From positions 60,305 through 124,304 of IMG/VR virus record IMGVR_UViG_2974628900_000001: a DNA stretch of 64,000 nucleotides, one strand, 5' to 3'. Below, piece by piece: positions 2,504 through 64,000 of the stretch. Numbering within the stretch: the stretch's first letter is position 1; each line of letters begins with the position of its first letter. The notes under the pieces were generated by a model that was given only the letters and a program-made list of their open reading frames with translations, did no database searches and had not been told where the DNA came from. The position numbers were made by a program, and so were the translations under genes. This DNA is from Streptomyces virus StarPlatinum. Taxonomy: Duplodnaviria; Heunggongvirae; Uroviricota; Caudoviricetes.

Positions 2504-2664
2504 CTGATATACTTGCTCCATGAGCACAGAAGCATATTTCCTCCGGGGAGTCGAAGAAGAACACCTATTGGTATTCCGAGGCGATGACCCGGAGGAAATT
2601 TTGTTTATCATTAAGCGGTTGGCCGCCTGCCGCGATAAGAAAATAAAGGCAATGGCAGAAAAAC

Positions 2665-4396: not shown

Positions 4397-4553
4397 GCAA
4401 GTATTCGAGTACGAGATTCCAGACTATGTTGCTGAGCGCTATCGTGAAATGATGGCCGAACCTCACGAAGAGTGGGAGGAGCAAGACTTCTGGGATACTT
4501 GGACATCTGATACATGGCCCGAAACATATTTGGAGGTAGTTGATGACGACTGA
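4371..4553 (+). CDS. hypothetical acidic protein
   Basis: 60-aa acidic, Trp-rich ORF. Confidence 0.35.
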   Translation: MKLVITVPEQVFEYEIPDYVAERYREMMAEPHEEWEEQDFWDTWTSDTWPETYLEVVDDD

Positions 4554-4884: not shown

Positions 4885-4907
4885 TACAATGATATTCGTT
4901 AAGAGAA

Positions 4908-5690: not shown

Positions 5691-5972
5691 TTGATTTGCG
5701 CCTATGGAGAGTGCGGCAACATGTTCGAGCCCAAGACTCATAATCAGAAGTTTTGCAGCTCAGCATGTTGCCGTAAGGCGACCAACGCACGTATCATGGA
5801 AAAGTATTACGCCAGACGTGATCGCAAGAGAGGTAAAGTGCGAACATGTTCTGAGTGCCCGACTGTTCTTTCCCGATATAACAGCTCAGAAAAGTGCGAG
5901 GGTTGTCAGGGAAAGACGCGGCGGGACGAGAGAGCCGAACTTTTGGAGTTGATTGGTAGTGCCTCTTTCTGA
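5691..5972 (+). CDS. zinc-ribbon protein
   Basis: TTG start; two CxxC pairs (CAYGEC..CSSACC; CSEC..CEGC); basic. Confidence 0.45.
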   Translation: MICAYGECGNMFEPKTHNQKFCSSACCRKATNARIMEKYYARRDRKRGKVRTCSECPTVLSRYNSSEKCEGCQGKTRRDERAELLELIGSASF

Positions 5973-6528
5973 CCTTCACAAGACGAAGGCTCAGAAGGTA
6001 ATGGGTATCGACTGCTCAACTAAGTCTATTGCATTTACCATCTTCGATGGAGAGAACTTCTACAGATGTGGAGAGGTTAATTTCAACGGTGAAACAGTTT
6101 TTGACAGAACTTATGACGCTCACGTAAAGACTTTGGCACTATTCGAAGAGTTCACTCCTGACTTTGTAGCAATCGAAGCAGCAATTATGGTTCGAAGCAC
6201 ATCAGTAGCTATTAAGATGGCTTATGTGTTTGGCGCAGTAATTGCTGCATTGCTCAAGAATGGAGCGAAGGTAATTGAAGTACCTCCTATGAGCTGGCAG
6301 TCATTTATTGGAAACAAGATTTTGACTAAGGCTGAGAAGGATGCAATTAAGGCTGAGTTCCCTGGGAAGTCTGCAAGCTGGTATCAGAATAAGGGCAGAC
6401 AGATCAGGAAGCAGCGAACCATCACCTTTGCCAAGGAAAAATTTGGCATTGAGCTAGAAAGCGATAACGTGGCTGACTCACTGGGAATTGGCTGGTGGGC
6501 AGTACAGAACAAAACTAGAAGGAGCTAA
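5953..6528 (+). CDS. RuvC-like Holliday junction resolvase
   Basis: MGIDCSTKSIAF (RuvC motif I-like Asp), acidic residues, DSLGIGWW C-terminal motif; 191 aa. Confidence 0.7.
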   Translation: MVVPLSDLHKTKAQKVMGIDCSTKSIAFTIFDGENFYRCGEVNFNGETVFDRTYDAHVKTLALFEEFTPDFVAIEAAIMVRSTSVAIKMAYVFGAVIAALLKNGAKVIEVPPMSWQSFIGNKILTKAEKDAIKAEFPGKSASWYQNKGRQIRKQRTITFAKEKFGIELESDNVADSLGIGWWAVQNKTRRS

Positions 6529-6529
6529 C

Positions 6530-6994
6530 ATGATAGTAGCGGGAACTGGACATCGAGATCTGAGGGACCGTGACTGGATTGCTGGCCAAATCGAGAAGGC
6601 CCTCATTGATATGGGGGCCTCTCTTGTTTACGTCGGCATGGCCTCTGGAGCTGATCTCCTAATGGCGAAAATCTCTTGGGGTCTAGGTATTCCATTCATT
6701 GCTGCAAAGCCATGGAGGGGCCACAAGCCTCGCCAGGCCGATGAGTATGACTATGGCCGAGCGCTTCACTACGCAGAAGAGGTTGTCAACGTTACTAACT
6801 ATGACAGCTACCCTGGAGCATGGGTGTACGACGAGCGAAACCGGTTCATGGTTGACAACGCTGATGCCTATCTGGCAGTATTGGAAGCCGGTAGGACTGG
6901 CGGCACTTACAATTGCGTTAAGTACGCATCCCGCAAGGGCAAGTCAGGCATAATCATCGATCCTCTGATGAGGGAGGTGACAAAGCTTGGCTAA
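6530..6994 (+). CDS. SLOG/DprA-like Rossmann-fold protein (DUF1273/DUF2493-like)
   Basis: AGGAG RBS before ATG 6530; GTGHRD...GMASGADLL motifs; family assignment tentative. Confidence 0.45.
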   Translation: MIVAGTGHRDLRDRDWIAGQIEKALIDMGASLVYVGMASGADLLMAKISWGLGIPFIAAKPWRGHKPRQADEYDYGRALHYAEEVVNVTNYDSYPGAWVYDERNRFMVDNADAYLAVLEAGRTGGTYNCVKYASRKGKSGIIIDPLMREVTKLG

Positions 6995-7137
6995 GCTATA
7001 TGAGAGCAAGGCGTGGTTGCAGGAAAGATATCGCAGAAAGACTGCGGCTCAGATTGCTAAGATCTGTGGCGTCTCTGAAATGACGATCACTCGATGGCTC
7101 GCAAAACATAACATTCCAATCAGGAGGAGCCGATGAG
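6988..7137 (+). CDS. small helix-turn-helix protein
   Basis: 49-aa ORF (TTG start) with HTH-like AKICGVSEMTITRWLAKHNI; below 60-aa track cutoff. Confidence 0.35.
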
Positions 7138-7924
7138 ATACAATTCTCGTCAAGAAGTCGAGCGTGCTGGAGAGCGCGGCGCAAAGAGTGAAACGGATGA
7201 CTTCGGTACTAGATACTGGATGCTAGACAGCTTTTGGATGTATGCCGAAGACAATGACTATGCAATGACTCCGCATTTTGCAGCGGGCCGGTGCTATTGG
7301 GAATCATGGGTTACTGCCTACATTTCTCAAAGAGTAGAGCCAGGATCAGTATTTGTAGACGTTGGTGCTAATCTAGGCTACTACTCCTTGTGGGCGGCAA
7401 AGCATGGATGCAATGTCATGGCATATGAACCAAACAGAGATCTGTTTATGAAGCTATTCAATTCAAAGCTTCTGAATAATGTGAAGATTTATCAGGGGTC
7501 TGTAGCGCTTGGCGATAGCTGGGAGCCCACTGAAAGAGTTCTCTATATTCCAGAGGGTCATTCTGGCGGAGCAAATATGTACGGAGCTAGTGGATCTTAC
7601 ACAATGCAGCACATGTATGTGCAGAGCTTTGACAGCGGCGTTCCAATTCCACGAGACTACGATGGCACGATCTATGTAAAGATTGATGCAGAAGGCGCGG
7701 AGCCAGAGATCTTTTCTGGCATGAAGTGGTGCTGGAAGCAAAAGCCAATGGTTCTATTCATGGAGTGGGATATCAGCCGTTACGATTCTTCATTTGGTGA
7801 GAAGCTTCTTGACAGTGGCAAGGTAAGCCTGATAGAGTACGATGGTACAGCCAGGGAGCTGGATCTTGATGGCCTATTGAGCCTAAAGGAACTACGAATG
7901 ATTGTGGTGGAAAACGACAAGTGA
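7133..7924 (+). CDS. FkbM-family SAM-dependent methyltransferase
   Basis: VFVDVGANLGYYSLWAA glycine-rich SAM motif and FkbM-like architecture. Confidence 0.7.
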   Translation: MRYNSRQEVERAGERGAKSETDDFGTRYWMLDSFWMYAEDNDYAMTPHFAAGRCYWESWVTAYISQRVEPGSVFVDVGANLGYYSLWAAKHGCNVMAYEPNRDLFMKLFNSKLLNNVKIYQGSVALGDSWEPTERVLYIPEGHSGGANMYGASGSYTMQHMYVQSFDSGVPIPRDYDGTIYVKIDAEGAEPEIFSGMKWCWKQKPMVLFMEWDISRYDSSFGEKLLDSGKVSLIEYDGTARELDLDGLLSLKELRMIVVENDK

Positions 7925-8544
7925 TTAAGATCGGAATGACCGGTGCCCAAGGCACTGGAAAAACATCCATGGCTCAGGCCATGGCACAAAGCCCGGCGTT
8001 CAAGGATTTCGTCCTTGTTCCATCAACAGCTAGACAGATCAAGGATTACGGTTATCCTATCAACAGGGAAGCAACCGAGCTAAGTCAGATCCTTGTTCCA
8101 GTTCTTAGAATGGTGGACGAGTGGGAAACCATGACCAGTCCACAGAACACTCTGTATAAGCAGGGAATCATTTCTGACAGAACACTGATCGATTCACTAG
8201 CATACACCTATTACCAGAATGAATACGTCTGGGAGAACGGTGCGCTTATTGAGAATGTGACCAGGCGACTGACAGAAATGCACATGCAGTCATACCACTT
8301 CGTTCTATATTTCCCGGTGTACTGGGAGGCAGAAGAAGACGGTGTGAGAGACGCAGACGAATCATATAGAAATCGTATTGATGACTATGTCATTCAGTCT
8401 CTAGAAATGCTCAACGTTCCCTATCTGACAGTTCCAGATGTTTCACCAGAAGAACGAGTAGAATGGTTCATTGGTGAAGTGCAGGAGCTATACGCCGAAG
8501 CAGAGAAGCAGTACCTGCGCCGATACGGCAATGGTCTGCTATAA
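7921..8544 (+). CDS. P-loop NTPase (AAA_28/NadR-kinase-like)
   Basis: Walker A GAQGTGKTS at N-terminus, 207 aa. Confidence 0.55.
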   Translation: MIKIGMTGAQGTGKTSMAQAMAQSPAFKDFVLVPSTARQIKDYGYPINREATELSQILVPVLRMVDEWETMTSPQNTLYKQGIISDRTLIDSLAYTYYQNEYVWENGALIENVTRRLTEMHMQSYHFVLYFPVYWEAEEDGVRDADESYRNRIDDYVIQSLEMLNVPYLTVPDVSPEERVEWFIGEVQELYAEAEKQYLRRYGNGLL

Positions 8545-8565
8545 TAATCTTGAAAGCGAGGAGAT

Positions 8566-8886
8566 ATGGGAACACCTACTAGAAGACGTTCCAAGGTAAA
8601 GAACCCGGATGCGTGGTGGCAGCAAGCCTACCTTGGGATTGATTACATCGTTCCCGCGTTTGAATTCGAGCTTGATGGAGAAGTGATCTTGCCAAAGGCA
8701 CTCATCAAGTTTAAGAACACGCGAGGCACTTACAAGTTTCGATGCGTTGCTACGAATGTGAGGACTGGAAAGACCTGGATCGATTGCATTAATGCAGATA
8801 CAGGGGAATGGAAGTCTTTCTACGTAGAACGTCTAAAGGGACTGGTGAAGCCTAAGCGTTCACGTAGAAGGAGAAAGGTTGCCTAA
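8566..8886 (+). CDS. hypothetical basic protein
   Basis: 106-aa ORF, Arg/Lys-rich termini. Confidence 0.45.
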   Translation: MGTPTRRRSKVKNPDAWWQQAYLGIDYIVPAFEFELDGEVILPKALIKFKNTRGTYKFRCVATNVRTGKTWIDCINADTGEWKSFYVERLKGLVKPKRSRRRRKVA

Positions 8887-9403
8887 AGAACTAGCAGAAA
8901 TCGACAGAATTGAGCGAATGAATGAAGTCGTAACTGCATACCTTAAGGGCGACAATCCTACTCAGATTGCCAAGATCACTGGGCTTAAGCGCGCAGAGGT
9001 GCTTGAATATATTGAAGAGTGGCGCGTAGTCGCTCAGAACAACAAGACTATTCAGGCACGAGCCACTGAGGCATTGACCTCAATGGATGAGCATTACAAT
9101 ATGATCATCCGTGAACTGTGGGAAACCATGGAACAGGCTGACCTCAATAACGACTTCAAGCTAAAGGCAACTGTTCTAAAGTCTCTTGCAGATGTTGAAG
9201 GCAAGAGGGTCGATCTGCTACAGAAGGCAGGACTTCTCGATAACCAGCAAATTGGTGATGAAGTCATCGAGATGGAGAAGAAGCACGAAATCCTTATCGG
9301 AATTCTGCGAGAAGTAACCTCCGACTGTCCTCACTGCAAGGTCGAAGTTGCCAGAAGGCTTTCCAGCGTAACGGGCAAGACAGAAACCATTGTCGTCCCC
9401 TGA
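8879..9403 (+). CDS. putative terminase small subunit
   Basis: N-terminal HTH-like segment, coiled C-terminus, immediately upstream of terminase large subunit. Confidence 0.5.
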   Translation: MPKELAEIDRIERMNEVVTAYLKGDNPTQIAKITGLKRAEVLEYIEEWRVVAQNNKTIQARATEALTSMDEHYNMIIRELWETMEQADLNNDFKLKATVLKSLADVEGKRVDLLQKAGLLDNQQIGDEVIEMEKKHEILIGILREVTSDCPHCKVEVARRLSSVTGKTETIVVP

Positions 9404-9408
9404 TCAAT

Positions 9409-9464
9409 AATCCTATATCCTTTCATGATATACTATTCAATATGAAAGGATATAGGATTTTTTG
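9409..9464 (+). terminator. perfect 18-bp stem-loop plus T-run immediately before terL start
   Basis: AATCCTATATCCTTTCAT-15 nt loop-ATGAAAGGATATAGGATT followed by TTTTT; ends 1 nt before ATG 9465. Confidence 0.6.
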
Positions 9465-11285
9465 ATGTCAACAGACTTTACCGAGTTCTTTAATGCTCTC
9501 TCTGACGAGGACTTTGAAGAGATTCCAGTAGATATTGAAACATTCGTGCAGAGCCAAGACTACTTGGGAATGCCTCATCTGTCCGAATATCAGTATCAAC
9601 TTATTCGTGCTTCCAGTCAGATTTACAAGGAGAGCACTCTTTACAACATCTACGAGGTACAAAAGGCCCGGCAGAGATGGGCGGAGACATGTAACGAAGT
9701 CATTGCCTGTCTAGGTAAGGGTAGCGGTAAGGACTTCACATCCACCATCGCCTGTGCGTATATCGTATACCTCTTGCTATGTCTACGCAATCCAGCTAAG
9801 TATTTTGGTAAGCCTGCTGGAGACTCCATTGACATTCTGAACATTGCTATCAACGCAGCCCAGGCCAACAACGTCTTCTTCAAGGGCTTCAAGAGCCGCA
9901 TCGAGGGGTCACCATGGTTTGTAGGAAAGTTCACGACTAAGGCGGGCCACATCGCATTTGATAAAAACGTGAACGTGTACTCAGGCCACTCCGAACGTGA
10001 AGCCTGGGAGGGTTACAACCTGATCTACTGCGTGCTTGACGAGATCTCCGGTTTTGCACTAGACTCTACATCAGGTAACGAGCAGGCTAAGACGGCCGAT
10101 GCTGTCTATAAGATGTATCGAGCATCTGTAGACTCTCGATTCCCAGCAGAAGGAAAGGTAGTTCTTCTATCATTCCCTCGCTTCAAGAACGACTTTATCT
10201 CTCAGAGATACGAAGCTGTTGTTGCTGATAAGCAGGTAATCGAACGTACACATACGTTTAAGCTTGATCCAGATCTTCCCGATGAGATTGAAGAGAACAA
10301 GTTCACAATCAAGTGGGAAGAGGACCATATCATTTCCTACAACATTCCACGTGTATACGCATTGAAGCGTCCTACGTGGGAGGTTAATCCTACTCGTAAG
10401 ATTGAAGACTTTACCACTGCATTCTTCACTGATCCTGTTGATGCATTGTCTCGATTTGCATGTATGCCACCTGATGCAATTGACGCCTTCTTCAAGGATA
10501 AGGAGAAGGTAGAAGCGGCGTTCTGTCGTCAAAATCCAATTGACGAAGATGGAACATACAGCCCTGACTTTGTGCCAAAGGAAGGCGTGCGCTACTATGT
10601 TCACGTTGACCTTGCGCAGAAGCATGACCGTTGTGCCGTAGCGCTAGCACATGTGGAGAAGTTTGTCCAGAAGAAAATCGGTGGACAGCTAAACGAAGTC
10701 TTGCCTTTTGTTGTAGTTGATGCTGTAAGATGGTGGACGCCGAAGCCAGGTCAGGACATTGACTTTGCCGACGTTCGAGAGTATATTACAGGATTGAAGC
10801 GAAGAGGATTCGACCTCAGACTTGTGACCTTTGACCGATGGAACTCTAATGACCAAATGAAGTATTTGCGAGGAGTTGGAATCAATTCAGAGGTTTTGTC
10901 TGTGGCAAAGAAGCATTACGAAGATCTGAGCTGGGTCGTCTATGACCAGAGGCTTGTTGGTCCGGATGCTGGTGTTCTTCGCAGAGAGCTGCTACAGTTG
11001 AGAATCATGCCGAACGACAAGATTGATCACCCAAGAACGGGATCAAAGGACTTGGCGGACGCGGTGTGTGGAGCAGTTCACAATGCAATTACATACACTC
11101 CTCGTGAAGAGAGCGCTGTCATTGAAGTTCAGACTTATCAGACTCTTCGACGTGCTGAGATTCAGGCTCGTCAGGAAGAGGTTGACAGCCAGCGAGAACG
11201 TGATAATGTAATTATAGCTCCTCGTGAGAGGCGTGAGATGCCTGATGACATTCAGGAATATCTCACAAGGCTAGAAATTATCTAA
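9465..11285 (+). CDS. terL: terminase large subunit
   Basis: Walker A-like LGKGSGKD, Walker B YCVLDEISGF, C-terminal RNaseH-like nuclease region with acidic residues (VHVDLAQKHDR); 606 aa. Confidence 0.85.
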   Translation: MSTDFTEFFNALSDEDFEEIPVDIETFVQSQDYLGMPHLSEYQYQLIRASSQIYKESTLYNIYEVQKARQRWAETCNEVIACLGKGSGKDFTSTIACAYIVYLLLCLRNPAKYFGKPAGDSIDILNIAINAAQANNVFFKGFKSRIEGSPWFVGKFTTKAGHIAFDKNVNVYSGHSEREAWEGYNLIYCVLDEISGFALDSTSGNEQAKTADAVYKMYRASVDSRFPAEGKVVLLSFPRFKNDFISQRYEAVVADKQVIERTHTFKLDPDLPDEIEENKFTIKWEEDHIISYNIPRVYALKRPTWEVNPTRKIEDFTTAFFTDPVDALSRFACMPPDAIDAFFKDKEKVEAAFCRQNPIDEDGTYSPDFVPKEGVRYYVHVDLAQKHDRCAVALAHVEKFVQKKIGGQLNEVLPFVVVDAVRWWTPKPGQDIDFADVREYITGLKRRGFDLRLVTFDRWNSNDQMKYLRGVGINSEVLSVAKKHYEDLSWVVYDQRLVGPDAGVLRRELLQLRIMPNDKIDHPRTGSKDLADAVCGAVHNAITYTPREESAVIEVQTYQTLRRAEIQARQEEVDSQRERDNVIIAPRERREMPDDIQEYLTRLEII

Positions 11286-11298
11286 GGAAGGTCATGCC

Positions 11299-11826
11299 AT
11301 GCCTGCTTTAAAGCAGAACCGTAAGGAAATTGTCAAGACTCTCCTAGTGCGTGATGGTAACCTATGTCGTCACCCCGATTGTGGGTTGCCATTCACCAAG
11401 GAGAAGCCTGCTACTATCGACCACTGGATACCGTTGAGTGCTGGTGGAACTTGGGAACTAACTAACCTAGTTCTCATGCACCAGAAGTGTAATGCCGCTA
11501 AGGGCGACAAGATCCCTCTTGACGACGGCACACTTCCTGTGGTACAAAAGAAGCAGAGGGTTGATCGCGCTGTGAAGCGTGCGGCTCGTCCAGTAGTTTG
11601 TGAACGTTGTCAGTCTGGTAGGCTGCTCGGTCCAGACGAAGAGTGCGAGCAGTGTGGAAGCGGTCCTATGCCGCCAACATACCCTCAATGGTCTAAGATG
11701 AAGCCAAACGAGTGTACGCACGAAGGCATCTGGTGGTGCTGGTGCTGCATGTCTGGTATCATACAAAGACAACCAGCAAGTAAGTACGTCTTTAATGGCG
11801 GTGAGCCGGGCATAGATCCGGCGTGA
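11299..11826 (+). CDS. HNH endonuclease
   Basis: HNH core DHWIPLSAGGTWELTNLVLMHQKCNAAK plus extra Cys-rich C-terminus. Confidence 0.75.
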   Translation: MPALKQNRKEIVKTLLVRDGNLCRHPDCGLPFTKEKPATIDHWIPLSAGGTWELTNLVLMHQKCNAAKGDKIPLDDGTLPVVQKKQRVDRAVKRAARPVVCERCQSGRLLGPDEECEQCGSGPMPPTYPQWSKMKPNECTHEGIWWCWCCMSGIIQRQPASKYVFNGGEPGIDPA

Positions 11827-11835
11827 AAGGATTAA

Positions 11836-12456
11836 ATGTCTACTACTACAGCAATGTTGCTCATCCTCGACCGGTCTGGTAGCATGTCTAGTATCCAGAT
11901 GGAGGCAGAGCAAGCGCTGAATGACTTCCTGACTAAGCAGAAGGCCGTTGACGGTCGATGTGGAGTCAAGGTTGTTCAGTTCGACAGCGAAGTAGAAGAT
12001 CTATTTGGTCCAGTTTCTCTAGCTAACGCACCTGAGATCAAGATCGTCCCTCGTGGAATGACAGCACTACTTGACGCAATCGGCAAGTCTGTGACAGAAT
12101 TCAGAGAGACGATGGACCACATGCCTGTGGATAAGCGACTCGTCGTTATCATGACAGATGGTCTAGAGAATGTTTCTCAGGAGTGGAATCTAGAAGCAGT
12201 TAACAAGCTGATTAGCGAGTCAAGGGAGTTGGGCTATGAGTTCATCTTCCTTGCCGCTAACCAGGATGCAATTGCGACTGGCGCTCAAATGGGTATTCCA
12301 ACAGCTTCAAGTTTGACCTTTGCGGCTAGTCCGGCTGGTGTGCGTGGCATGGGAATGACCATGGACATGTACGTCACCAACTATCGTGAGGGTAAGTCAG
12401 CAGAATTCACTGATCAGGACAGGGCAACAGCTTCTGGCTTGACAGACGAAGACTAA
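11836..12456 (+). CDS. von Willebrand factor A (vWA) domain protein
   Basis: MIDAS motif LDRSGSM, later TDG; 206 aa. Confidence 0.7.
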   Translation: MSTTTAMLLILDRSGSMSSIQMEAEQALNDFLTKQKAVDGRCGVKVVQFDSEVEDLFGPVSLANAPEIKIVPRGMTALLDAIGKSVTEFRETMDHMPVDKRLVVIMTDGLENVSQEWNLEAVNKLISESRELGYEFIFLAANQDAIATGAQMGIPTASSLTFAASPAGVRGMGMTMDMYVTNYREGKSAEFTDQDRATASGLTDED

Positions 12457-12476: not shown

Positions 12477-12560
12477 GGGTCGAAGGGCTCGGTCGGTTAT
12501 CTTACATTGGAAATAGAAAGCCATTAAATTGGCACCCGACTCCCAACACTTATCCACATT
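12477..12560 (+). ncRNA. Y-RNA-like element, copy d (GGGTCGAAGGG...CGGTTATCTTACA module)
   Basis: 5' sequence tGGGTCGAAGGGctcggtCGGTTATC resembles the conserved metazoan Y RNA 5' end (GGUCCGAAGG...GUUAUC); GGTCGG/CCGACT can pair; no T-loop. Confidence 0.4.
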
Positions 12561-21638: not shown

Positions 21639-23267
21639 ATGTCCAACGCACTAACTAATGCCGCAAAGGCAACCAACAAGACTTCTCAGAATCTGCCAGC
21701 AAAGGCAGGACAGGTCAAGAACAACGCTGGTGGATTCGTCTTCCAGGTTTCTGATCAGTCTCGCCTTGAGCGATTTCTGATTCTTGGAACTGATGGAGGA
21801 ACGTATTACGTTTCTGAGGTTAACCACACTCAGTCAAACGTGACCTTCCTCAACGAGATGATTGCCCGAGACGAAGCCTCTGTACTGAACACAATCGTTG
21901 ATGTATCTGTCAATGGTCGTGCGTACAAGCAGTCTCCTGCCCTGTTCGCTCTAGCCTCTGTCATTGTCAACGGCAAGGATAAGCAGGCGGTCAAGGCGGT
22001 ATTCAACAAGGTCGTAAGGACTGCTACTCACCTCTACGAGGTAGTTAACTATCTTAACGAGCTTGGTGGATGGGGTCGCGCAAAGCGAGAAATCGTAGCT
22101 GGCTGGTTCGACAAGGACGCTGATAAGCTTGCTTATCAGGCTGTCAAGTATCGTTCCCGCACGTTCGGTGGAAACACCTGGACGCTACGAGACGTAATGC
22201 GAAAGGCTCACCCACAGAACGTTAACACGTCTGTTGCTGATTTCGTCCTAGGCAAGGAGCACGCGGCTGTAGATGACCTTCGGGTTATCGAGGGCTTCAA
22301 GCTTATGCAGAAGGCGGAGTCTGTAGAGGCTGTGCACGCAGTTCTGCGGGATTACGAGATGCTTAGCTGGGAGACCATTCCAACGCAGTTCCTCACGGAT
22401 GCTAGCGTTTGGAAGCGACTCTTTGCTAATGGTCAGCTTCGTGGTCAGGCTGCTGTTCGAAACATTACTCGCCTCGCGCGTATTGGTGCTTTCAAGGACA
22501 TGCGGTTCGCTGCGAACTTTGCTAGCCAGCTAGCGAATGAGGAAATGATTCGTCAATCTCGACTGCACCCAATTAACTTCCTTAACGCTGCCGTTGTTTA
22601 TGCCGATGGCCAGGTGGATCGAAAGAACATCTGGGGTGGACGTGTAAAGAACTGGGAGACTGAGGGTGTTATTGTCGATGCAATCGATGAGGCGTTCCAC
22701 AAGTCATTCAAGACCATTGAGCCAGCCGGTAAGAGGACGATGCTAGCCATCGACTGTTCCGGTTCAATGAGCACACAGGCTATGGGTCTCGACCTAAGCT
22801 GTGCGCAGGTTGCTGGCGCTATGGCAATGACCATTGCTCGTACTGAGCCAGCTCACATCATCCGTGGTTTCTCTTCCAAGGGATACAACTGGCGTGATAG
22901 CGGTATGGCCGAACTAAAGATCACCAGCCGTAGCTCTCTTGCTCAGGCAATGAGTGCAATGCGTGCGGTGAACTGGGGAGGCACAGACTGCTCACTTCCA
23001 ATGACGTGGGCGCTTGAGAATGGCGTAGAGGTTGACACCTTCGTCGTTATCACTGATAACGAGACGTGGGCTGGAAAGATTCACCCATTCCAGGCTCTTA
23101 AGAAGTACCGCAAGGAAATGGGAATTGACGCAAGGCTCGCTGTTCTAGGAGTCGCTTCAACTCCATTTACTATCGCTGATCCTAGCGATAGCGGCATGAT
23201 GGACTTCGTTGGCTTTGATAGCAACGCTCCACGTGTTCTTGCTGACTTCTCCGCAGGTCGCATCTGA
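21639..23267 (+). CDS. rsr: Ro60/Rsr-like ribonucleoprotein (TROVE domain + vWA domain)
   Basis: RLERFLILGTDGGTYY matches Ro60 signature RLHRFLCFGSEGGTYY; PALFALASV matches PMLFALAIC; C-terminal vWA MIDAS AIDCSGSM; 542 aa. Confidence 0.9.
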   Translation: MSNALTNAAKATNKTSQNLPAKAGQVKNNAGGFVFQVSDQSRLERFLILGTDGGTYYVSEVNHTQSNVTFLNEMIARDEASVLNTIVDVSVNGRAYKQSPALFALASVIVNGKDKQAVKAVFNKVVRTATHLYEVVNYLNELGGWGRAKREIVAGWFDKDADKLAYQAVKYRSRTFGGNTWTLRDVMRKAHPQNVNTSVADFVLGKEHAAVDDLRVIEGFKLMQKAESVEAVHAVLRDYEMLSWETIPTQFLTDASVWKRLFANGQLRGQAAVRNITRLARIGAFKDMRFAANFASQLANEEMIRQSRLHPINFLNAAVVYADGQVDRKNIWGGRVKNWETEGVIVDAIDEAFHKSFKTIEPAGKRTMLAIDCSGSMSTQAMGLDLSCAQVAGAMAMTIARTEPAHIIRGFSSKGYNWRDSGMAELKITSRSSLAQAMSAMRAVNWGGTDCSLPMTWALENGVEVDTFVVITDNETWAGKIHPFQALKKYRKEMGIDARLAVLGVASTPFTIADPSDSGMMDFVGFDSNAPRVLADFSAGRI

Positions 23268-39243: not shown

Positions 39244-39522
39244 GGGGATGCCTTGGTTTCGACTGGGGTGGATGACTTTAGTTTGCAGCCTGACATTGAG
39301 GAGATGTCATTAAAAAGCCTCAAACCTATAAATGCCAACTCTAACGTTGCATCTGCCTACGCCCTAGCGGCGTGATGGCCGGGCGGCGACTGCCTAGGAA
39401 CAGAAAGTTGCGAATGTTTGGCCCGGTGGGGATAAACACATCGTAGTATCTGCTTGACACATGGCTGTGTATAGACTACTGTTTGAAGCATCAGGACGCG
39501 GGTTCGACTCCCGCCATCTCCA
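39244..39522 (+). ncRNA. ssrA: tmRNA (SsrA), tag peptide (A)NSNVASAYALAA
   Basis: 5' GGGGATGCCTTGGTTTCGACTGGGG and 3' GGACGCGGGTTCGACTCCCGCCATCTCCA parallel E. coli tmRNA ends; G3:U70 in acceptor; internal ORF GCC AAC TCT AAC GTT GCA TCT GCC TAC GCC CTA GCG GCG TGA. Confidence 0.85.
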
Positions 39523-39535
39523 CTTAAGGATCATC

Positions 39536-57638: not shown

Positions 57639-58058
57639 ATGAATCAGTACGAGTTCCCTTACACCGATCACTTCACCGCAAACAGCAGCGTTATTGATGG
57701 AGTCTACTTCAATAAGGATGAGCAGAAGCTTGCTGTCCTTTTCAATCGTGGTGATGTTCAGGTCTACAGTGGAGTAAGCGAGGATGAATTCAGTCGTCTT
57801 CACTCTGCTCTCAGTGTTGGTGTTTATTACAATCGATACATCAAGGGTCAGTACAGCTCACAGGGTTGGGGCGACAGGGTAAAGTTCTACAAGCTGGCAG
57901 AGAAGAAGCCTCTTGAGATGCATCCTGAGTTCAACACTGTCGAAGAGAAGTCCGGCGATGTGAATGTGACTGTTAACATTTACGTCAATGGTAATCCGGA
58001 AGACATTGCAAAGGCCGTTGAGCGCCTTGCTCCGTCATTCCGAGCTATGAGGAGGTAA
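57639..58058 (+). CDS. hypothetical protein
   Basis: 139-aa ORF. Confidence 0.45.
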   Translation: MNQYEFPYTDHFTANSSVIDGVYFNKDEQKLAVLFNRGDVQVYSGVSEDEFSRLHSALSVGVYYNRYIKGQYSSQGWGDRVKFYKLAEKKPLEMHPEFNTVEEKSGDVNVTVNIYVNGNPEDIAKAVERLAPSFRAMRR

Positions 58059-58067
58059 GACATTATA

Positions 58068-58364
58068 GTGAATGTTGCCTCTCCTTCTGCATTGGAGGAG
58101 CAGGTAAAGGAAAGAGCACTGGTTGTCTTTTCTGCCCCGGCGTGGTGTGCGCCTTGTCGTGCACTTGCGCCACATGTCATTGCCCTAAGCGAAGAGGTTG
58201 ATTATCCCATCGTTTATGTGGACATTGACGAGGCTGAGGCAATTAGAGTAATGTACGATGTCATGTCAGTACCGCGTATTTATGAATTCGTCAACGGCGA
58301 ACCTACACGCGAACTAAAGGGCCGTACGATTCTAGCTCTACGAACGGAACTGGCCGCTGAGTAA
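58068..58364 (+). CDS. thioredoxin-like protein
   Basis: Active-site-like WCAPC in FSAPAWCAPCRALAP. Confidence 0.65.
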   Translation: MNVASPSALEEQVKERALVVFSAPAWCAPCRALAPHVIALSEEVDYPIVYVDIDEAEAIRVMYDVMSVPRIYEFVNGEPTRELKGRTILALRTELAAE

Positions 58365-58742
58365 TCAGCGGCCTTTGCCGTACCTTGACAGATAATCGGC
58401 ACAAGAGTATGGTTTAACCATGAACGTTTACATAGCACAGGCAATTGGTTTGATTCTGGGCGTTGTCGGAGTGATCATAGGTCACTACTCATATGAGTTG
58501 GCAAGCCGTATAACTGATTCGAAGGGGATGATCATATGACGTGTGCTGCGTGTGGTGGTGAATGCGACGAAACTATTTGTTTCGAAACATTTGGCGACAA
58601 GATCAGAAGACTATTCTTCTGTAGCATTTCACATCGTGCCGCCTGGTTCTTCGGATGGATGGTATGAGAATTATTGTAATAGGAGGGGTCGTAGTATGGC
58701 TCCTTCTAATTCTTTTTATTTGCAGGTGGTTCTACGTAATCA

Positions 58743-59240
58743 GTGAGAGGCGAGAGCGTGAGGGTAAGTCCGATCGTGAAGTTCGTTGGTGAGGATTACT
58801 ACCTCTCCAATTTCTATTCAGCTCCAGTAAAGCTAGGCAATCTCACATTCAAGACTAATGAGGCTGCCTTTCAGGCGTCTAAGTATCGGGCGATGACTGG
58901 CACACAGCAAGAGCAGTACGCATATATTGCTGCAATTCTTGATTGTGAAAAGCCTGGTGAGACTAAGAAGCTTGGCAAGCAAGTAGCAATAGACCTTGAC
59001 AAGTGGGAGCAAATCAAGGTACGTTGTATGAGAGACATTGTACGAGCGAAGTTCGATCAGAACCAAGATCTAAAGACTAAGCTCATGGCAACAGGTGCAG
59101 CTCTACTGGTTGAAGGTAATGACTGGGGAGATACATTCTGGGGCCGGTGCAATGGTAAGGGTGGTAATGTCCTTGGCTCCATACTAATGGAACTAAGAGG
59201 CTTCTACTACTGGTCAGAGATGGATTCAGTTAACTTCTGA
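58743..59240 (+). CDS. NADAR (YbiA/DUF1768) family protein
   Basis: YLSNFYSAPV..FKTNEAAFQASKY...LGSILMELRG matches NADAR pattern FSNFY..F.T.E..FQA.K ... LG..LM..R. Confidence 0.7.
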   Translation: MRGESVRVSPIVKFVGEDYYLSNFYSAPVKLGNLTFKTNEAAFQASKYRAMTGTQQEQYAYIAAILDCEKPGETKKLGKQVAIDLDKWEQIKVRCMRDIVRAKFDQNQDLKTKLMATGAALLVEGNDWGDTFWGRCNGKGGNVLGSILMELRGFYYWSEMDSVNF

Positions 59241-59243
59241 GAG

Positions 59244-59741
59244 GTGCTAATGGCACTGATGAATGATCTCGCTCGAATGAGCGAGGCTGAGATGTCAAGA
59301 AAGTTCAAGGGCCTTGTCGAGGGCTATGCCAAGGATCTTGCTAAGAGCAACAAGAGTAAGGGTGATCCTGGGACAGCTTCTATCGCCTCTGTGCGAGTCG
59401 GTAAGGTAAAGAGAAAGAAGGGGCAGCTAATCCCCTCACAGATCCTTCTTGCAATGCGTGCAGCCATCTGGAAGATGGGATGGGCACAAGGTGTTCTTCA
59501 AGATGAAGAGGGAAGGCTGTGCCTTCGGGGCGCAATGGTATGGCTCTATCGTAAGGGCTATTTCCACCAGGAAGACGGCGACATTGCTGCACAGTGGCTT
59601 CACGATGAAGTTCGCAGGAAGAATGGCGATGCGCAGAAGTACAATTTCATTTACTGGAACAACGATCCTCGCCGTACACTTGCAGAGATCCTAAAGATTC
59701 TGGAGGATGCAGGTAATCGTGCCAAACTGGCGGGAGAATGA
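59244..59741 (+). CDS. hypothetical protein
   Basis: 165-aa ORF. Confidence 0.45.
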   Translation: MLMALMNDLARMSEAEMSRKFKGLVEGYAKDLAKSNKSKGDPGTASIASVRVGKVKRKKGQLIPSQILLAMRAAIWKMGWAQGVLQDEEGRLCLRGAMVWLYRKGYFHQEDGDIAAQWLHDEVRRKNGDAQKYNFIYWNNDPRRTLAEILKILEDAGNRAKLAGE

Positions 59742-60153
59742 TTGGGAGCTAGCTGGATATCTGTCTGCTGAGGATTTTCAGCTAGCTCAGGCACAATGGG
59801 AAAGGGTAGCGGAGGAGTTCGTAACGCTACGAGATCGAATGCGAGAAATAGGCCCGGTGGCAGAGGCCGCCTCTATTTCTCTCAATGCATTCAGAGAGGC
59901 ACAGGACATGGCAGTGGACATTCGACACAGTGAATACCCCATGCGTGATGGTTACGGAACTTATTGGTATGACCCAAGTGGTTTCCATGGTGACCACGAA
60001 GAGAATTGTTTCATGTGTGGAGAATTCACCAATAGAGTAGACATTGATTATCATGGCTACTTCTGCAATTCAGACGAGTGCAACGAGGCCATTCGTAAGG
60101 ATCTTGAACGTCTGAATGGTGGTCCGGAGGAAACAAATGAAGATCGGGATTGA
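59707..60153 (+). CDS. hypothetical Cys/His protein
   Basis: 148 aa, C-terminal CFMCGEF...YHGYFCNSDEC. Confidence 0.45.
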   Translation: MQVIVPNWRENDWELAGYLSAEDFQLAQAQWERVAEEFVTLRDRMREIGPVAEAASISLNAFREAQDMAVDIRHSEYPMRDGYGTYWYDPSGFHGDHEENCFMCGEFTNRVDIDYHGYFCNSDECNEAIRKDLERLNGGPEETNEDRD

Positions 60154-60364
60154 GGTCAAGACGCTCAACAAGAACACGTTCTTCTCAGACTTGCTAGACT
60201 TGTCTGGCAAGACGGATGATGAGCGAGAAAAGGTTGTCAACATTATCGAAGATGTTCTAGATGGTGTTGCTTCTGGTTCAGGAATCGGCATCAAGGTAGG
60301 GGGAAAGCAGATTGCCATTCCTTCTAGCGCAATCGAATACGCAACGACCTACGAAGCCGATTGA
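60137..60364 (+). CDS. hypothetical protein
   Basis: 75 aa from internal ATG. Confidence 0.4.
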   Translation: MKIGIEVKTLNKNTFFSDLLDLSGKTDDEREKVVNIIEDVLDGVASGSGIGIKVGGKQIAIPSSAIEYATTYEAD

Positions 60365-60399
60365 CAAACTCATAGGTTCTCGTCTAGCATAAGAACATT

Positions 60400-60636
60400 A
60401 TGAGATATACAATTGTAAAGGAGTCTCTTAAAAGAGGCAGAGTGGTGGAGGGCTACAATTACTGTATCCTTGATACCAAGGTAGACAAGGTAGTCTTCCG
60501 CCATTCATCCGAATTCAAAGCTGAGTTCATCAAGGACTCTTTCAATGAGGCAAACGTCAGTAGCCGGTTCGAATACGAATTGCCAGGCAACGAGAGCATT
60601 GAAGATCTAGATGATTCAGCATTTCAAGGGGAATAA
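60400..60636 (+). CDS. hypothetical protein
   Basis: TTGACA-17-CTAGCAT promoter upstream; 78 aa. Confidence 0.45.
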   Translation: MRYTIVKESLKRGRVVEGYNYCILDTKVDKVVFRHSSEFKAEFIKDSFNEANVSSRFEYELPGNESIEDLDDSAFQGE

Positions 60637-60915
60637 ATGCTGGAGAAAATGGCCTGGCGATATCTGGCCCGGCGCATGGAGGCCCATCGTAAAGCAGGTA
60701 GACATCATGATGCAGACCACATCAGAGCAGCCCTTGCTACTAGACCACAGAAGCAATGCGCCCTCTGCTGCATAATGGAGAATACAGACTGGCTTGCATG
60801 GGCATCACGGTTTGATCCGTCCTTTAATATGGACGAAGACAAGGAACTGTATGGAAGTGCTACTAGTAATGCCGCCCGGTTTAGAGATGTGGTTCGGAGA
60901 AGTGGACTGGACTGA
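60637..60915 (+). CDS. hypothetical protein
   Basis: 92 aa; last confident + strand gene before repeat region. Confidence 0.45.
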   Translation: MLEKMAWRYLARRMEAHRKAGRHHDADHIRAALATRPQKQCALCCIMENTDWLAWASRFDPSFNMDEDKELYGSATSNAARFRDVVRRSGLD

Positions 60916-60974
60916 CGAATACTGGGATGAGGATGAGGACTACCGTTTTGGTAGTCCTTTCCCATTTTCCTGGA

Positions 60975-61031
60975 TTTTTAGTCAGCGGCCGATTTTTTAG
61001 TCACGAACTGATTGACCAGATTTTTAGTCAC
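60975..61031. repeat. three direct repeats GATTTTTAGTCA(C)
   Basis: ggATTTTTAGTCAgcgg / cgATTTTTTAGTCAcgaa / caGATTTTTAGTCAcaaa spaced 18-27 bp. Confidence 0.7.
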
Positions 61032-61594
61032 AAAAAGCCCGGTGGCTAGAGTCCCTTCCACACATATAAGACTCATAAGACATCGTATAAGACAGACTAG
61101 TCAATAAAGACTAGACAGAAAGCTTCATACGCCTTTGTAATAAAGAAGGCGTAGTCAGACACGTCAGTTGATTAAAGCATTGTGAGAAGCCAATGCAGCT
61201 ATGCTGCTGGTCTTGTTGAGAGTGCTGGTTGGAGTGGTGAATCAGCAGGATATCTTGATGTCGAGACAATAGTTATTGTCGGCAAGCCGACTATCCACAG
61301 GTAGGTGCACAGGTTGTGGATAACTTTCTCAGATTGTTGATTATCTTGATATAGAGATACTTGTTGAAATGTAGTGTGTAATGGTGCAGGAAATCGAAGG
61401 CGAATCGTAAGCCACACATTAGATTCTAAAGTCAGAAGGGGGTTCCGGCCTTAGAATCACAGCCAACATAGCCAGCCAGCCTAATAAAGTATCGATTCAA
61501 GGGCTCAGACGGCCTCTAAAAACCAGCAAAAATAGCCCCAAAACCTGCAAAATCTGCCAATAATTGGCCCAAATCCTTTGAAAACACAGTATTT

Positions 61595-62069
61595 CCGGGA
61601 GTTTTTGCACTCATTCGTAAAGGGCATGCCAGATAGACCTTAGAATCATAGGTCAGACTGACTATTTAGCCTTAGATTCCCAGGAATTTAGCAGCCATTC
61701 GTAAAGCAGCCTACTATGACAGCCAAAGTATGCAGCCATGGCTATGCAGCCTGGATACTCAGCCAAGACAGATTGATTGTGCTGTGTCTTATATGTAGAA
61801 TTGACCCGGTGGAGTATTGGTTGTTGTTCTATGTCTTATATAGTACAAGGACACCCAATGCCACCGGCCAACAATCTCTCCTTGTCCTATGTCTTATATC
61901 GGAAAACAGAAGAAGCCTGCCAATAAAGACGGCAGGCTTTGTTGCATGTCTTATATAAGACAGACCGAACTAACAATCAGAATCTTCCGCAGATTTTAGA
62001 GCCATTCATAAATGCGCTCCGATGATCTTTGTCAGATCTTCCGGGAATTTTAGGCCCATTCGTAAAGGG
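61595..62069. repeat. four direct copies of about 30-bp repeat ccGGgAATTTTAG..CCATTCGTAAAGgg
   Basis: Copies at about 61595, 61679, 61985, 62037 (ccgggagtttttgcactcattcgtaaaggg / ccaggaatttagcagccattcgtaaagcag / cagattttagagccattcataaatgcg / ccgggaattttaggcccattcgtaaaggg). Confidence 0.7.
61785..61956. repeat. four direct repeats (C)TATGTCTTATAT spaced about 50-60 bp
   Basis: gctgTGTCTTATATgta, ttctaTGTCTTATATagt, tcctaTGTCTTATATcgg, ttgcaTGTCTTATATaag. Confidence 0.7.
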
Positions 62070-62422
62070 CGAAAACTCGGACATGTGGGACAAATCAAAA
62101 TCTAGATGTATAGTCATCGTGTTAGTTAGGCTAAGCAATGAACCGGGGCGGCTCACGCCTTTTCGGGCTTCATGCAGACAGAAGAAGCCGTGTTCTCTCC
62201 GTCGAGAACGTGCACCCAGAATCCCAGCCAAATAACGGTGGTGCCACAGTGCTTGCAGTATCCGGTGTATTCCACAATTCCTCCAGATTGAATTGAAAGG
62301 TCCCTGGGTTGCAGCCGACCATCTGCTATTTAACCCCTCGCCCGAATGGACTGATAGGGGACCCAGGAACACACCTTATGACCTCACTACAATAGTGTAA
62401 CAAGGTCATCGCTCAGTGTCAA

Positions 62423-62665
62423 TCACCACTGCAATTCGTCAGTGACGTTGTAGTGCGAGACGAACGGCACGACCCAGCGAGAATTGAGAAGCTTTCCCTT
62501 CTCCTCCCACAGAGTGAGAGTGCCAGTCTTGGGATTGAACTCAACCCCATTGGACATGATGCCTGTGAACTCCAGCTCCCTTCGGACACCTTCTTCGAGA
62601 ACGATCACGGTTACAGTCACAGTCATGTTCTGTCCCTTCGTTGATACTAGTCTAACAGAGTACAA
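62423..62665 (-). CDS. hypothetical protein (minus strand)
   Basis: 80-aa ORF; AGTCTAACAGAGT motif just upstream (plus coordinates 62645..62657). Confidence 0.45.
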   Translation of the reverse strand: MYSVRLVSTKGQNMTVTVTVIVLEEGVRRELEFTGIMSNGVEFNPKTGTLTLWEEKGKLLNSRWVVPFVSHYNVTDELQW

Positions 62666-62702
62666 GGGACATGTCTACCACCGGGCCAAAATAACCGGGG
62701 CG

Positions 62703-62729
62703 GCCAAAAGCCCCCGCCGAAGCGGGGGC
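62703..62729 (-). terminator. rho-independent terminator (minus strand) after capsid-like gene
   Basis: On minus strand GCCCCCGC-TTCG-GCGGGGGC followed by TTTTGG. Confidence 0.7.
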
Positions 62730-62736
62730 CGTTGAC

Positions 62737-63738
62737 TCAGGCAGCCAGGGAGTAACCCAGGACAACCTTACGGATCTTGTTCTTCTCGGTGTTGGTGACC
62801 GGGTCGAATCCGGAAGCGGCGGCGAACAGGTTGTCCACCTCACCCTTACGCGGCATACGGTACCAGTCCTTGAACTCGGTGAAGGCATTCAGCGCACCGG
62901 CCATGGTACCGGCCAGAGACTGAGTGGTCTTGGGACCGTCGCCCGTGTCAGTGAAGATGCCCATGTGAAGATCGCGCTTGTTGTCCCACTTGACCTGGGA
63001 CCCCTTGACGTTCTCCTTCGGACGCTCACCGTAGATCGCAGCGAACATCTCATCGAACTTGTCCTTCGTGCACTGCACGCGGAACAGCTCGTTCATCTCA
63101 CGCTCGAACTCGTCGGCGTAAGCGAAGGTGATGTTCAGTGCCTCACGCGCGGCAGCCATGCGACCCTCGATGGTCTGAGTGTGGCGCATCTTGAAACTCT
63201 GCTTCACACCGTTACGGAGTGCGAAGTTCAGGGTGTTCTGACACACGACACGGACCGGAGTGACGCTCGCCTGCACCGCGAGAGAACCGTCATGGGAGGT
63301 GTTCACGAGCAGATACATGTTCGTGACATCGTCGTCGCCCACCAGCACCTCACGACCGATGCGCAGAGATCCGAAGACCTGCGTACCGTCCTTGATAGAA
63401 CCGGCAGTCTCCCACGTTCCACCACCCGCGAGGATGCCGTCACCGAAGGCGAACAGTTCCTCATTCTGGACGACCTTATACCGCTCCGCGACGATACCAA
63501 GGCTGTCAGCCTCACCATCGAACGGGTTGGTACGGATCACCTCGAAGGCACTCTTCTTGGTGCGACCCTTACGCTCCAGCAGCTCCAGCCGAACGTTCCA
63601 GTCGGAGAGGTGGGCGAGTCGCAGCATCTCAGAGGTGGTGAGTTCCCCGTCAAAGACGGTGCCAAGCTGGTGCCACGCGGGCTCCAGACGAGAGGCGAAC
63701 GCGACCTGACCACGGGAACCGATTTCGAGACCGTGCAT
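62737..63738 (-). CDS. putative major capsid/structural protein (minus strand)
   Basis: 333 aa from ATG with AGGAG RBS (track ORF extends to 63882); strongly expressed-gene features: terminator and conserved upstream motif; product assignment tentative. Confidence 0.45.
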   Translation of the reverse strand: MHGLEIGSRGQVAFASRLEPAWHQLGTVFDGELTTSEMLRLAHLSDWNVRLELLERKGRTKKSAFEVIRTNPFDGEADSLGIVAERYKVVQNEELFAFGDGILAGGGTWETAGSIKDGTQVFGSLRIGREVLVGDDDVTNMYLLVNTSHDGSLAVQASVTPVRVVCQNTLNFALRNGVKQSFKMRHTQTIEGRMAAAREALNITFAYADEFEREMNELFRVQCTKDKFDEMFAAIYGERPKENVKGSQVKWDNKRDLHMGIFTDTGDGPKTTQSLAGTMAGALNAFTEFKDWYRMPRKGEVDNLFAAASGFDPVTNTEKNKIRKVVLGYSLAA

Positions 63739-64000
63739 TTTTGCTCCTAGTGTAGGTGTTTCTTCTAGCTTACTTGCACGGGGACTACTTGTCAAAGTAG
63801 TCAGAGAGCACACTGTTGAGTTGATCAAGAACAGATCATCCAAGGCTTCGGGCTTTCGCCTTCCCCCTTGCTGATAGCTCAAGTCTAACAGAGTCTAGGC
63901 GGATGTGTCCACATGATTCAAGGGAGATCATTTCGCCGGGGCGGCTTGTGGCCCCCGAAGGGGCCACCGCCAATTAGGGAATCATCCCCAGAGGCTCAAA

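Follow-up and report, generated by a model that had tools for sequence, protein, structure and literature searches.

What is the role of the long, repeat-dense gap at which the gene blocks of the Streptomyces phage StarPlatinum meet? We addressed this question in a window of 64,000 nucleotides (the whole stretch of DNA analysed here), in which the gap spans positions 60960–62420. An earlier note on this DNA had described the gap as a noncoding region with four families of direct repeats at a strand switch, and had proposed a replication origin or a multi-site region for the binding of regulators. The region was found to be 100% identical to the StarPlatinum genome (MH576965.1, 133,886 bp, genus Karimacvirus; record positions 121204–122754), which was reassembled as a whole from the window plus fetched loci; positions below refer to the window unless they are marked as record positions (record = window + 60304). 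This genome carries an exact direct terminal repeat of 12,199 bp, with 0 mismatches between its two copies, and the right copy runs from 61384 (record 121688). The start of this right copy corresponds to the physical left end of virion DNA. Unique DNA and the 12.2-kb terminal repeat meet in the region, which also takes in the untranslated start of the repeat, about 1 kb long: the first 424 bp of 60960–62420 are unique DNA, while the remaining 1,037 bp are the beginning of the repeat, and the same 1,037 bp also form the physical left end of the virion DNA.

How ends are defined and duplicated in phages with terminal repeats on the 10-kb scale is poorly understood. The explanation that we favour, giving it about even chances, is that this locus is a cis-acting end-forming and packaging region built around the point where the terminal repeat starts, upon which terminators and a new gene for a small RNA are superimposed.

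Start of the terminal repeat

The gene boundaries given in the earlier note, i.e., a last long plus-strand gene that ends at 60915 and minus-strand genes after the gap, are right, the first minus-strand gene (of the terminal-repeat block) ending at 62423. In the complete genome, genes 1–42 lie on the minus strand, genes 43–268 on the plus strand, and the genes of the right repeat copy on the minus strand again. Because the plus-strand block and the minus-strand block both end at the gap, transcription converges on it, and the "transcriptional divergence point" of the earlier note was not borne out: a terminator-like hairpin of its own closes the plus-strand block here, and genes 42 and 43 mark the true point of divergence (record ~17.9–18.4 kb). 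The terminal repeat carries about 25 small genes, all pointing away from the right end, the largest product being a 333-aa DUF932 protein. Between 34 and 39 phage records contain the region, all of them from Streptomyces phages of StarPlatinum's group, and each record shows two matching places, as a terminal repeat would lead one to expect.

The boundary between unique and repeated DNA (61383/61384) is conserved. At the homologous position in 15 genomes, which comprise three named genera (Karimacvirus, Tomasvirus and Samistivirus) and contigs from IMG/VR, the terminal repeat starts right after (T/A)(G/A)TGTAAT(G/A/T), mostly TGTGTAATG. The deposited genomes of LukeCage, Karimac and Yaboi begin at the homologous base, directly after TAGTGTGTAATG, and the same end position was found in Tomas (Tomasvirus), Mildred21 (Samistivirus) and seven further IMG/VR genomes, the end of Mildred21 being placed by its published repeat length of 10,818 bp (PMC5764925). 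Variants of the end-site motif are slight (TATGTAATG, TGTGTAATA and TGTGTAATT). The ends in this phage group were called from read-start pile-ups and doubled coverage, and the genome announcement of the group mentions the long repeats and a comparison with T5 and SPO1, with the boundary left undescribed there (PMC5764925). In terminal-repeat phages, sequence-specific termini shared by relatives have been taken as recognition or cleavage sites of terminase (PMC5418689), and the conserved position and motif suggest that terminase or its partners may use the site in StarPlatinum as well.

Two further observations concern the boundaries themselves. Within ~25 bp of the genome end, many genomes have a variable short palindrome or hairpin (61392–61410 in StarPlatinum), e.g., TTGAACGCGTTCAA in Wofford, GTTCCGGGCGGGAAC in contig c135653 and CGAAAGGTTTCG in LukeCage. 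At the other (right) boundary of the repeat, GCGAAGCATGTAT is followed by C(G/A)TACA (CGTACA in StarPlatinum), which is conserved in four genomes; this boundary lies inside a small palindrome (CATGTAT, then CGTACATG), with AT-rich DNA after it (record 12150–12260).

The claim that the gap contains no credible open reading frames (ORFs) held in a comparison of nine related genomes, among which position and frame are not preserved for any ORF; in six of the nine, stops or frameshifts interrupt the ORF that is annotated in Yaboi. A Pfam search of seven gap ORFs gave no matches, and a PHROGs search of the same seven gave two weak ones, which probably trace to small ORFs annotated in the same region of relatives. 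StarPlatinum genes 269 and 270 (60869–61000 and 61182–61304) and Yaboi gene 1 (record 485–706) overlap conserved DNA motifs, and their frames are lost in relatives. The small ORFs annotated in the gap of several deposited genomes are thus probably not genes, and a protein-coding reading of the region was rejected on these grounds. ARAGORN found no transfer RNA (tRNA) in the gap.

Repeat arrays at conserved distances from the genome end

All four repeat families described earlier were found within 1–2 bases of their reported positions, far above chance (for the first three families as estimated from the expected counts in the 64-kb window plus 100 shuffles), and conserved in relatives. The first family, GATTTTTAGTCA / TTTTTAGTCA, occurs three times on the plus strand at 60973–61030 (three exact copies of TTTTTAGTCA versus 0.11 expected; 0 of 100 shuffles reached three). 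It is the only family in unique DNA, 354–411 bp before the repeat start, and the other three are found within the first 700 bp of the terminal repeat. A twin of the TTTTTAGTCA array stands inside the repeat at record 10215–10280, upstream of the gene 21 promoter. The second family is CCTTAGAWTC, present three times (61449, 61638 and 61670; 0.19 expected, 0 of 100 shuffles); its first copy falls within an inverted repeat, GATTCTAAAG...CCTTAGAATC (61422–61458), which is only partly conserved. The third family consists of four units of ~30 bp on the plus strand (61596–61622, 61680–61706, 61987–62013 and 62041–62067) that end in (C)ATTCGTAAAG; the exact 11-mer CATTCGTAAAG closes three of them, and with at most one mismatch it gave seven matches versus 0.77 expected (0 of 100 shuffles).

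The fourth family is an iteron array, TGTCTTATAT, at 61783–61962, with four copies on the plus strand (61785, 61832, 61890 and 61947) and a fifth on the minus strand at 61953, that is, five within 178 bp. The last two copies overlap to form a perfect 16-bp palindrome, TGTCTTATATAAGACA (61947–61962). Apart from the other terminal repeat copy, the exact 10-mer is found nowhere else in the 133,886-bp genome, and a general promoter or operator motif was rejected on this ground. A parS site would be a 16-bp palindrome to which a ParB protein with a helix-turn-helix domain binds; the annotated 117-aa ParB-like protein of the phage had no Pfam match at E ≤ 0.01.

In an alignment of nine genomes, these repeat motifs, iterons included, are invariant, and the DNA between them varies and contains indels. 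Such a pattern fits functional sites and not recent duplication. Conservation of the repeats among relatives was one of the checks proposed with the earlier note, and its description of a multi-site binding region for regulators is a fair one for noncoding DNA in which conserved, locus-specific repeats are arranged like protein-binding arrays. Besides the four families, the region contains inverted ATAAGAC copies, a DnaA-box pair with a flanking direct repeat, CAGCC repeats, A-tracts, hairpins and a structured RNA, none of which the earlier note had listed.

When distances are counted from the base at which the terminal repeat starts, the arrays other than the DnaA-box pair hold their distances to the end within ~20–100 bp, depending on the array, in 10–14 genomes. 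On the unique-DNA side, two to three copies of TTTTTAGTC lie in plus orientation at −330 to −410, the position that the TTTTTAGTCA array occupies in 10 genomes. The iteron follows at −240 to −320 in minus orientation and returns inside the repeat at +390 to +570, there in plus orientation and in up to four copies. In StarPlatinum the minus-orientation copies are three ATAAGAC sequences (61064–61094, minus strand), the core of the iteron in opposite orientation to the TGTCTTATAT array, and they are invariant in nine genomes. The (A/T)TCGTAAA motif is always on the plus strand (~+212, +285–315, +420–470 and +620–680), although not all four positions are occupied in every genome checked.

The iteron itself differs between lineages. 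Karimacvirus, including Wofford, has GTCTTATA, whereas Tomas and the Samistivirus-like phages have their own iteron, TATAGGGG, in place of the ATAAGAC copies. Within each lineage, the two flanks carry an identical variant, inverted on one relative to the other. The two flanks adjoin only in the junction form, i.e., in concatemers and at the right repeat copy. The simplest account of this concerted change is that one protein would recognise both sides of the end position.

Nearer to the end lies the DnaA-box pair, two 9-mers in inverted orientation (cTATCCACA-15 nt-TGTGGATAA, 61291–61323), ~60–93 bp upstream of the end. The pair, TTATCCACA-N13–15-TGTGGATAA, was found in 13 of 14 genomes with a variable spacer between the boxes, which are 3 nt apart in Wofford. 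In 12 genomes the right box occupies about −68 to −60, and an insertion in contig c132885 has moved it ~18 bp further upstream. In StarPlatinum and close relatives, the pair is flanked by a direct repeat, TATCTTGAT-n3-GAGA (left copy 61251–61274, plus strand; right copy 61342–61365). Between the pair and the end lies an AT-rich spacer of 60 bp (61324–61383) with a guanine-plus-cytosine (GC) content of 30%, compared with 49.5% for the genome, and this spacer ends in the end-site motif TAGTGTGTAATG (61372–61383). On the other side of the end, six A-tracts at 61518–61585 (+135 to +200) are spaced by ~10–11 bp or 21 bp; the autocorrelation of AA in this region peaks at lags of 10 and 21, and the phasing is kept in three genera despite differing sequence, which suggests intrinsically curved DNA. 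The centre of the DnaA-box pair (61300–61314) was seen in two orientations, GGT...GGT in StarPlatinum and Genie2 and ACC...ACC in Karimac, Stanimal and Yaboi; it looks as if the centre of this inverted repeat has flipped among close relatives.

These features would fit a scheme in which the left end of each genome is made at this junction in replicating concatemers. The core at ~61250–61400 would then be a site of end formation and packaging, akin to a cos or pac site and composed of the end position (TGTGTAATG and then the first base of the repeat), the AT-rich spacer, and the inverted 9-mer pair ~60–93 bp upstream, which may bind either host DnaA or a phage protein. The flanking elements, namely the TTTTTAGTCA array, the GTCTTATA iteron in its two opposite orientations, the ATTCGTAAAG units and the curved A-tracts, might serve to assemble or bridge a protein–DNA complex at the end. 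Overlaid on this core and its flanks would be the stops of the two converging transcription blocks (two hairpins) and an independent unit, a promoter with an RNA of ~95 nt.

Several observations weigh against such a scheme. Tomas is without the DnaA-box pair, and the pair is thus not indispensable. Between the right and left boundaries of the repeat, a weak TGTA(A)T is the only clear similarity, so that a rule of recognition common to the two cuts is not apparent. The iterons could be matched neither to a small terminase subunit nor to a sequence-specific DNA-binding protein; a Pfam search of the terminal-repeat gene products gave only DUF932, GP88, DUF7447 and an Lsr2 DNA-binding domain, and an iteron-binding candidate among these genes was rejected on this result. 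The TTTTTAGTCA array and GCCGCCCCGG also stand at promoters inside the repeat, so that at least some of the motifs probably serve transcription control. Finally, such sites could equally well belong to an origin, a regulator or a pause during injection; an entry pause, an origin and pure transcription control each have a small probability, and these readings do not exclude one another. With dozens of genomes available, the comparison yields a precise map of the end, consisting of the end-site motif, a DnaA pair at a fixed distance, curved DNA and concerted iterons on two flanks, and in this tractable system the map offers small, concrete targets that could be mutagenised, footprinted or put through packaging assays.

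Two minor elements of the region are a short hairpin around the nearly invariant TTTGTAATAAAGA (61129–61152), whose loop sequence is conserved while support for its stem is weak, and short CAGCC / TATGCAGCC repeats on the plus strand (61719–61771). A second repeat-dense noncoding stretch was observed at the other end of the terminal repeat (record 11234–11550, between gene 25 and an HNH gene). It has four to five repeats of the GGTACATAGGG type, which resemble the Samistivirus-like iteron, as well as the motifs AAATTTCCCGGAGGATC and GACAAATCGGACA, both of which also occur in the region studied here.

Likeness to phage T5 and other systems

By its layout, the closest described system is Repeat Region 3 of phage T5. 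This is an untranslated stretch of 1.2 kb that lies mostly inside the 10,139-bp left terminal repeat and reaches 270 bp into unique DNA; it contains repeats, inverted repeats, palindromes, DnaA boxes and bent DNA, is conserved in T5-like phages, and is regarded as probably the signal at which injection stops (bioRxiv 10.1101/866236). T5 and StarPlatinum are siphoviruses whose terminal repeats of ~10–12 kb carry many small genes, and in both the boundary is an untranslated region of 1.2–1.5 kb, packed with repeats, with DnaA-box 9-mers and bent DNA, and conserved in relatives. As in T5, the StarPlatinum region has at least 1 kb of untranslated DNA with repeats and palindromes and overruns into unique DNA. 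When the StarPlatinum map is flipped, the order of elements is also the same, i.e., a terminus, small genes transcribed inward, and an untranslated region across the inner repeat boundary. The deposited map is thus a mirror image of that of T5, and there is no sequence similarity between the two, whose hosts are unrelated. A phage group unrelated to T5 in sequence and host has nevertheless the same overall layout.

The likeness raises the possibility that the region is a T5-like injection stop, and how T5 DNA comes to a stop during two-step injection is a question that is decades old. The right end would enter first, the ~25 small genes of the repeat would be expressed, and transfer would pause at the untranslated region, possibly through binding of the DnaA boxes to membrane-associated DnaA. 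Such a role is compatible with packaging because the same sequence also stands at the extreme left end. In its favour, the region lies for the most part in the repeat and extends ~425–470 bp into unique DNA, compared with 270 bp in T5 (Davison, bioRxiv 10.1101/866236), the repeat genes are all oriented away from the right end, and some segments are the best-conserved stretches of the repeat between genera, as reported for T5. Yet the arrangement of the boxes is a different one. T5 has about eight boxes in pairs spaced by 3 bp, in two 131-bp inverted repeats inside the terminal repeat, whereas StarPlatinum and its relatives have a single inverted pair outside it, with a spacer of 13–15 nt in most genomes and 3 nt in Wofford, and Tomas does without boxes altogether. 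Two-step injection and proteins of the A1/A2 type, features of T5, are not known for StarPlatinum, and no protein as large as A1 is encoded in the StarPlatinum repeat, the 333-aa DUF932 protein being its largest. The DnaA model is itself a hypothesis for T5. We therefore regard an injection stop as an unlikely explanation for the region.

An equally doubtful, broader proposal is that of a T5-like strategy that would have arisen independently among Streptomyces phages with long terminal repeats, in which one cis-region would both form and package the ends and brake entry, recruiting DnaA through the box pair; a protein would bridge the co-evolving inverted iterons, and the repeat would encode a new family of small structured RNAs, expressed early from a host-type promoter.

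Other systems share fewer features with the StarPlatinum junction. Terminal-repeat phages such as T7/T3, SPO1-like and Bacillus cereus-group phages likewise have exact, non-permuted ends at a short sequence common to relatives (PMC5418689). The StarPlatinum repeat is 12 kb and not 160 bp long, and its motifs are unrelated to theirs. The concatemer junction of T7 likewise bears arrays of short repeats, and transcription close to the ends plays a part in its processing. An inverted two-flank iteron layout and a DnaA-box pair are not known from these systems. In phage lambda, cos consists of the nicking site cosN and of cosB, which holds sites for the small terminase subunit and a site for a host bending protein at fixed helical distances. 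The StarPlatinum junction may be likened to it by analogy only, as an end-forming site beside an array of binding sites, with bent DNA and a possible host DNA-binding accessory protein; the differences are that lambda has 12-nt cohesive ends and not a long terminal repeat, and that no small terminase subunit was identified in StarPlatinum.

Transcription signals, a candidate small RNA and remaining alternatives

Two hairpins in the region look like the terminators of the converging blocks. The first, AGGACTACC-GTTTT-GGTAGTCCT (60936–60958, plus strand), follows the stop codon of the last plus-strand gene at 60915 and has a T-rich tail; its stem is 100% paired in eight genomes, with two pairs changed on both sides and G–U pairs that are valid on the plus strand only. 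The second, AAGCCTGCC-n9-GGCAGGCTT (61913–61939), was found by a pattern scan, and runs rich in T on either strand give it the look of a two-way terminator. In nine genomes it is fully (100%) paired, a G–C pair being swapped once for C–G. Both hairpins thus combine a G+C-rich stem kept by compensatory changes with a T-rich run, as expected of intrinsic terminators. A promoter-like sequence, TTGATT-17-TAGAAT (plus strand, 61773–61801), overlaps the first TGTCTTATAT iteron in six of nine genomes and, together with the second hairpin, could define a plus-strand transcript of ~135 nt.

At the far end of the gap, directly after the stop codon of gene 271, lies a promoter motif on the minus strand (TTGACA-17 nt-TACACT, 62394–62422) with a TG upstream of the second hexamer. 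The pattern TTGACA-N17-TAnnnT was present without change in 18 of 18 sequences, drawn from three genera and from seven metagenome contigs, and the 17-nt spacer varies freely. Downstream of it, on the same strand, is a candidate small RNA of ~95 nt (62291–62387), whose structured core of ~71 nt (62300–62370, ending CUUUCAAUU) folds into a closing stem of 10 bp plus two inner hairpins. In 15 sequences, the 23 pairs of this fold are 99.4% paired and eight of them are changed on both sides; none of the shuffles reached the observed covariation score, and pairing in shifted registers was only 36–60%. The RNA would be read from the minus strand, since its U–G pairs would be C–A mismatches on the other strand. 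This segment is also the best-conserved stretch between the StarPlatinum and Tomas repeats (88.7%). These data make 62291–62422 a candidate for an undescribed gene of a small structured RNA behind a canonical promoter of the sigma-70/HrdB type. If so, such a gene, present twice per virion genome and absent from Rfam, would provide a separate lead on the early interaction of host and phage in Streptomyces.

Database searches placed the candidate in no known family. Rfam gave no matches for 58000–64000 at E ≤ 1 and, for 61384–62450 at E ≤ 10, only sub-threshold matches at chance level, none of them on the RNA element; in the whole window, only the families of tRNA and transfer-messenger RNA (tmRNA) reached the gathering score, and no known Y RNA was detected. 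The conserved-core pattern had no exact match in 185,579 genomes of bacterial and archaeal species and matched in phage contigs only, by which a homologue in hosts or prophages was rejected. A Y RNA that would partner the Ro-like protein of the phage was also considered. Y RNAs are 80–130 nt long and have a long stem (PMC4201824), and the size of ~95 nt and the closing stem of 5′ and 3′ parts would fit. The StarPlatinum RNA differs in that it is not beside the Ro-like gene, which is ~38 kb away, has no tRNA-like domain in its predicted fold and reaches the gathering score of no Rfam family, and this identity is unlikely.

Could transcription control then explain the whole region? The repeats would then act as operators bound by a regulator that the phage makes early, or as sites for an Lsr2-like protein, governing small transcripts and shutting off read-through where the two blocks meet, and the genome end would be incidental. 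The invariant promoter with its structured RNA, the promoter-like TTGATT-17-TAGAAT and the two covarying terminator hairpins all suit this explanation, as do the recurrence of the TTTTTAGTCA array, GCCGCCCCGG and AAGATC-type motifs at promoters inside the repeat and the protein with an Lsr2 DNA-binding domain that the repeat encodes. It leaves unexplained, however, why distances to the end are conserved across genera and why an iteron in opposite orientation is found on the unique-DNA flank, and the exact iteron is absent from all other promoter regions of the genome. Transcription control as the main function thus appears improbable.

A replication origin was one of the two functions that the earlier note suggested for this locus. 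DnaA would bind the inverted pair, the stretch of 30% GC would unwind, and the iterons and bent DNA would organise an initiation complex; in a variant of this idea, origin-like features could help to prime the strand-displacement synthesis that duplicates the terminal repeat. The box TTATCCACA is a perfect general DnaA box and is one base off the Streptomyces high-affinity box TTGTCCACA (PMC4285127). The presence of the pair in 13 of 14 genomes, the adjacent 60 bp of low GC, the iteron arrays and the phased A-tracts also speak for an origin, and boxes, an AT-rich stretch, iterons and curved DNA within 1 kb are what iteron/DnaA-box origins of plasmids and phages (P1 oriR, oriC-type) would offer. 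In contrast to such origins, there are only two boxes here and no adjacent initiator gene: the neighbours encode small proteins of unknown function, and helicase, primase and polymerase lie at record 55–62 kb, 60 kb away. The cumulative GC skew, which the earlier note had named as a check, has its maximum here (~record 121 kb) and its minimum at ~17 kb, at the true divergence, which is the opposite of the polarity of an origin; because skew is confounded by the direction of transcription, this argues against an origin without proving its absence. Transcription converges on the site as well, and the DnaA boxes in the equivalent region of T5 are thought to be unrelated to replication (Davison, bioRxiv 10.1101/866236). 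Taken together, these results disfavour an origin, which we consider quite unlikely.

An origin with clustered DnaA boxes elsewhere in the genome was also looked for, and no cluster was found: there are seven strict boxes genome-wide, and no 1-kb window has three or more relaxed ones. In the window, exact TTATCCACA boxes number three (with the one at 61315) versus ~0.5 expected by simple arithmetic. The two others are 420 bp apart, at 12126–12134 (minus strand, in gene 102) and at 12550–12558 (plus strand), just upstream of the first tRNA gene.

Decay of promoter–terminator modules and small genes at the repeat edge, without a function of its own, could be read from a gene-less promoter-module element at 62141–62153 and from an insertion found only in StarPlatinum, but it is largely refuted and very improbable, because the motifs are invariant against divergent spacers, positions are kept in three genera, and changes on the flanks are compensatory and concerted.

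The gene-less element, AGCCGCCCCGGTT (62141–62153, minus strand), is a copy of the upstream element common to the promoter modules of terminal-repeat genes. Most of the longer intergenic gaps among the minus-strand repeat genes contain such a module, made up of a terminator hairpin, GCCGCCCCGG(Y), AAAAGATC(W)TG, a −35 element and TAGACT. Modules are spread over record 1244–11550 (examples in the window are 62643–62740 and 63760–63990), and CCGGGGCGGC recurs at least 14 times in the terminal repeat. In the Yaboi group, the copy at 62141–62153 is inverted in place, with CCGCCCCGG instead of CCGGGGCGG. A gene-less promoter-like site next to GCCGCCCCGG (62105–62140, minus strand) does not have a conserved spacing. 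The window also holds 42 tRNA genes (12563–56467), a tmRNA gene (39244–39525) and the gene for the Ro-like RNA-binding protein (21639–23267).

The insertion, ~138 bp long (62153–62290), directly follows the 3′ end of the small RNA. StarPlatinum is its sole carrier among 50,697 phage records, and a mobile element was rejected for this reason. It repeats a 12-mer, ACAGAAGAAGCC, that also precedes the hairpin at 61913.

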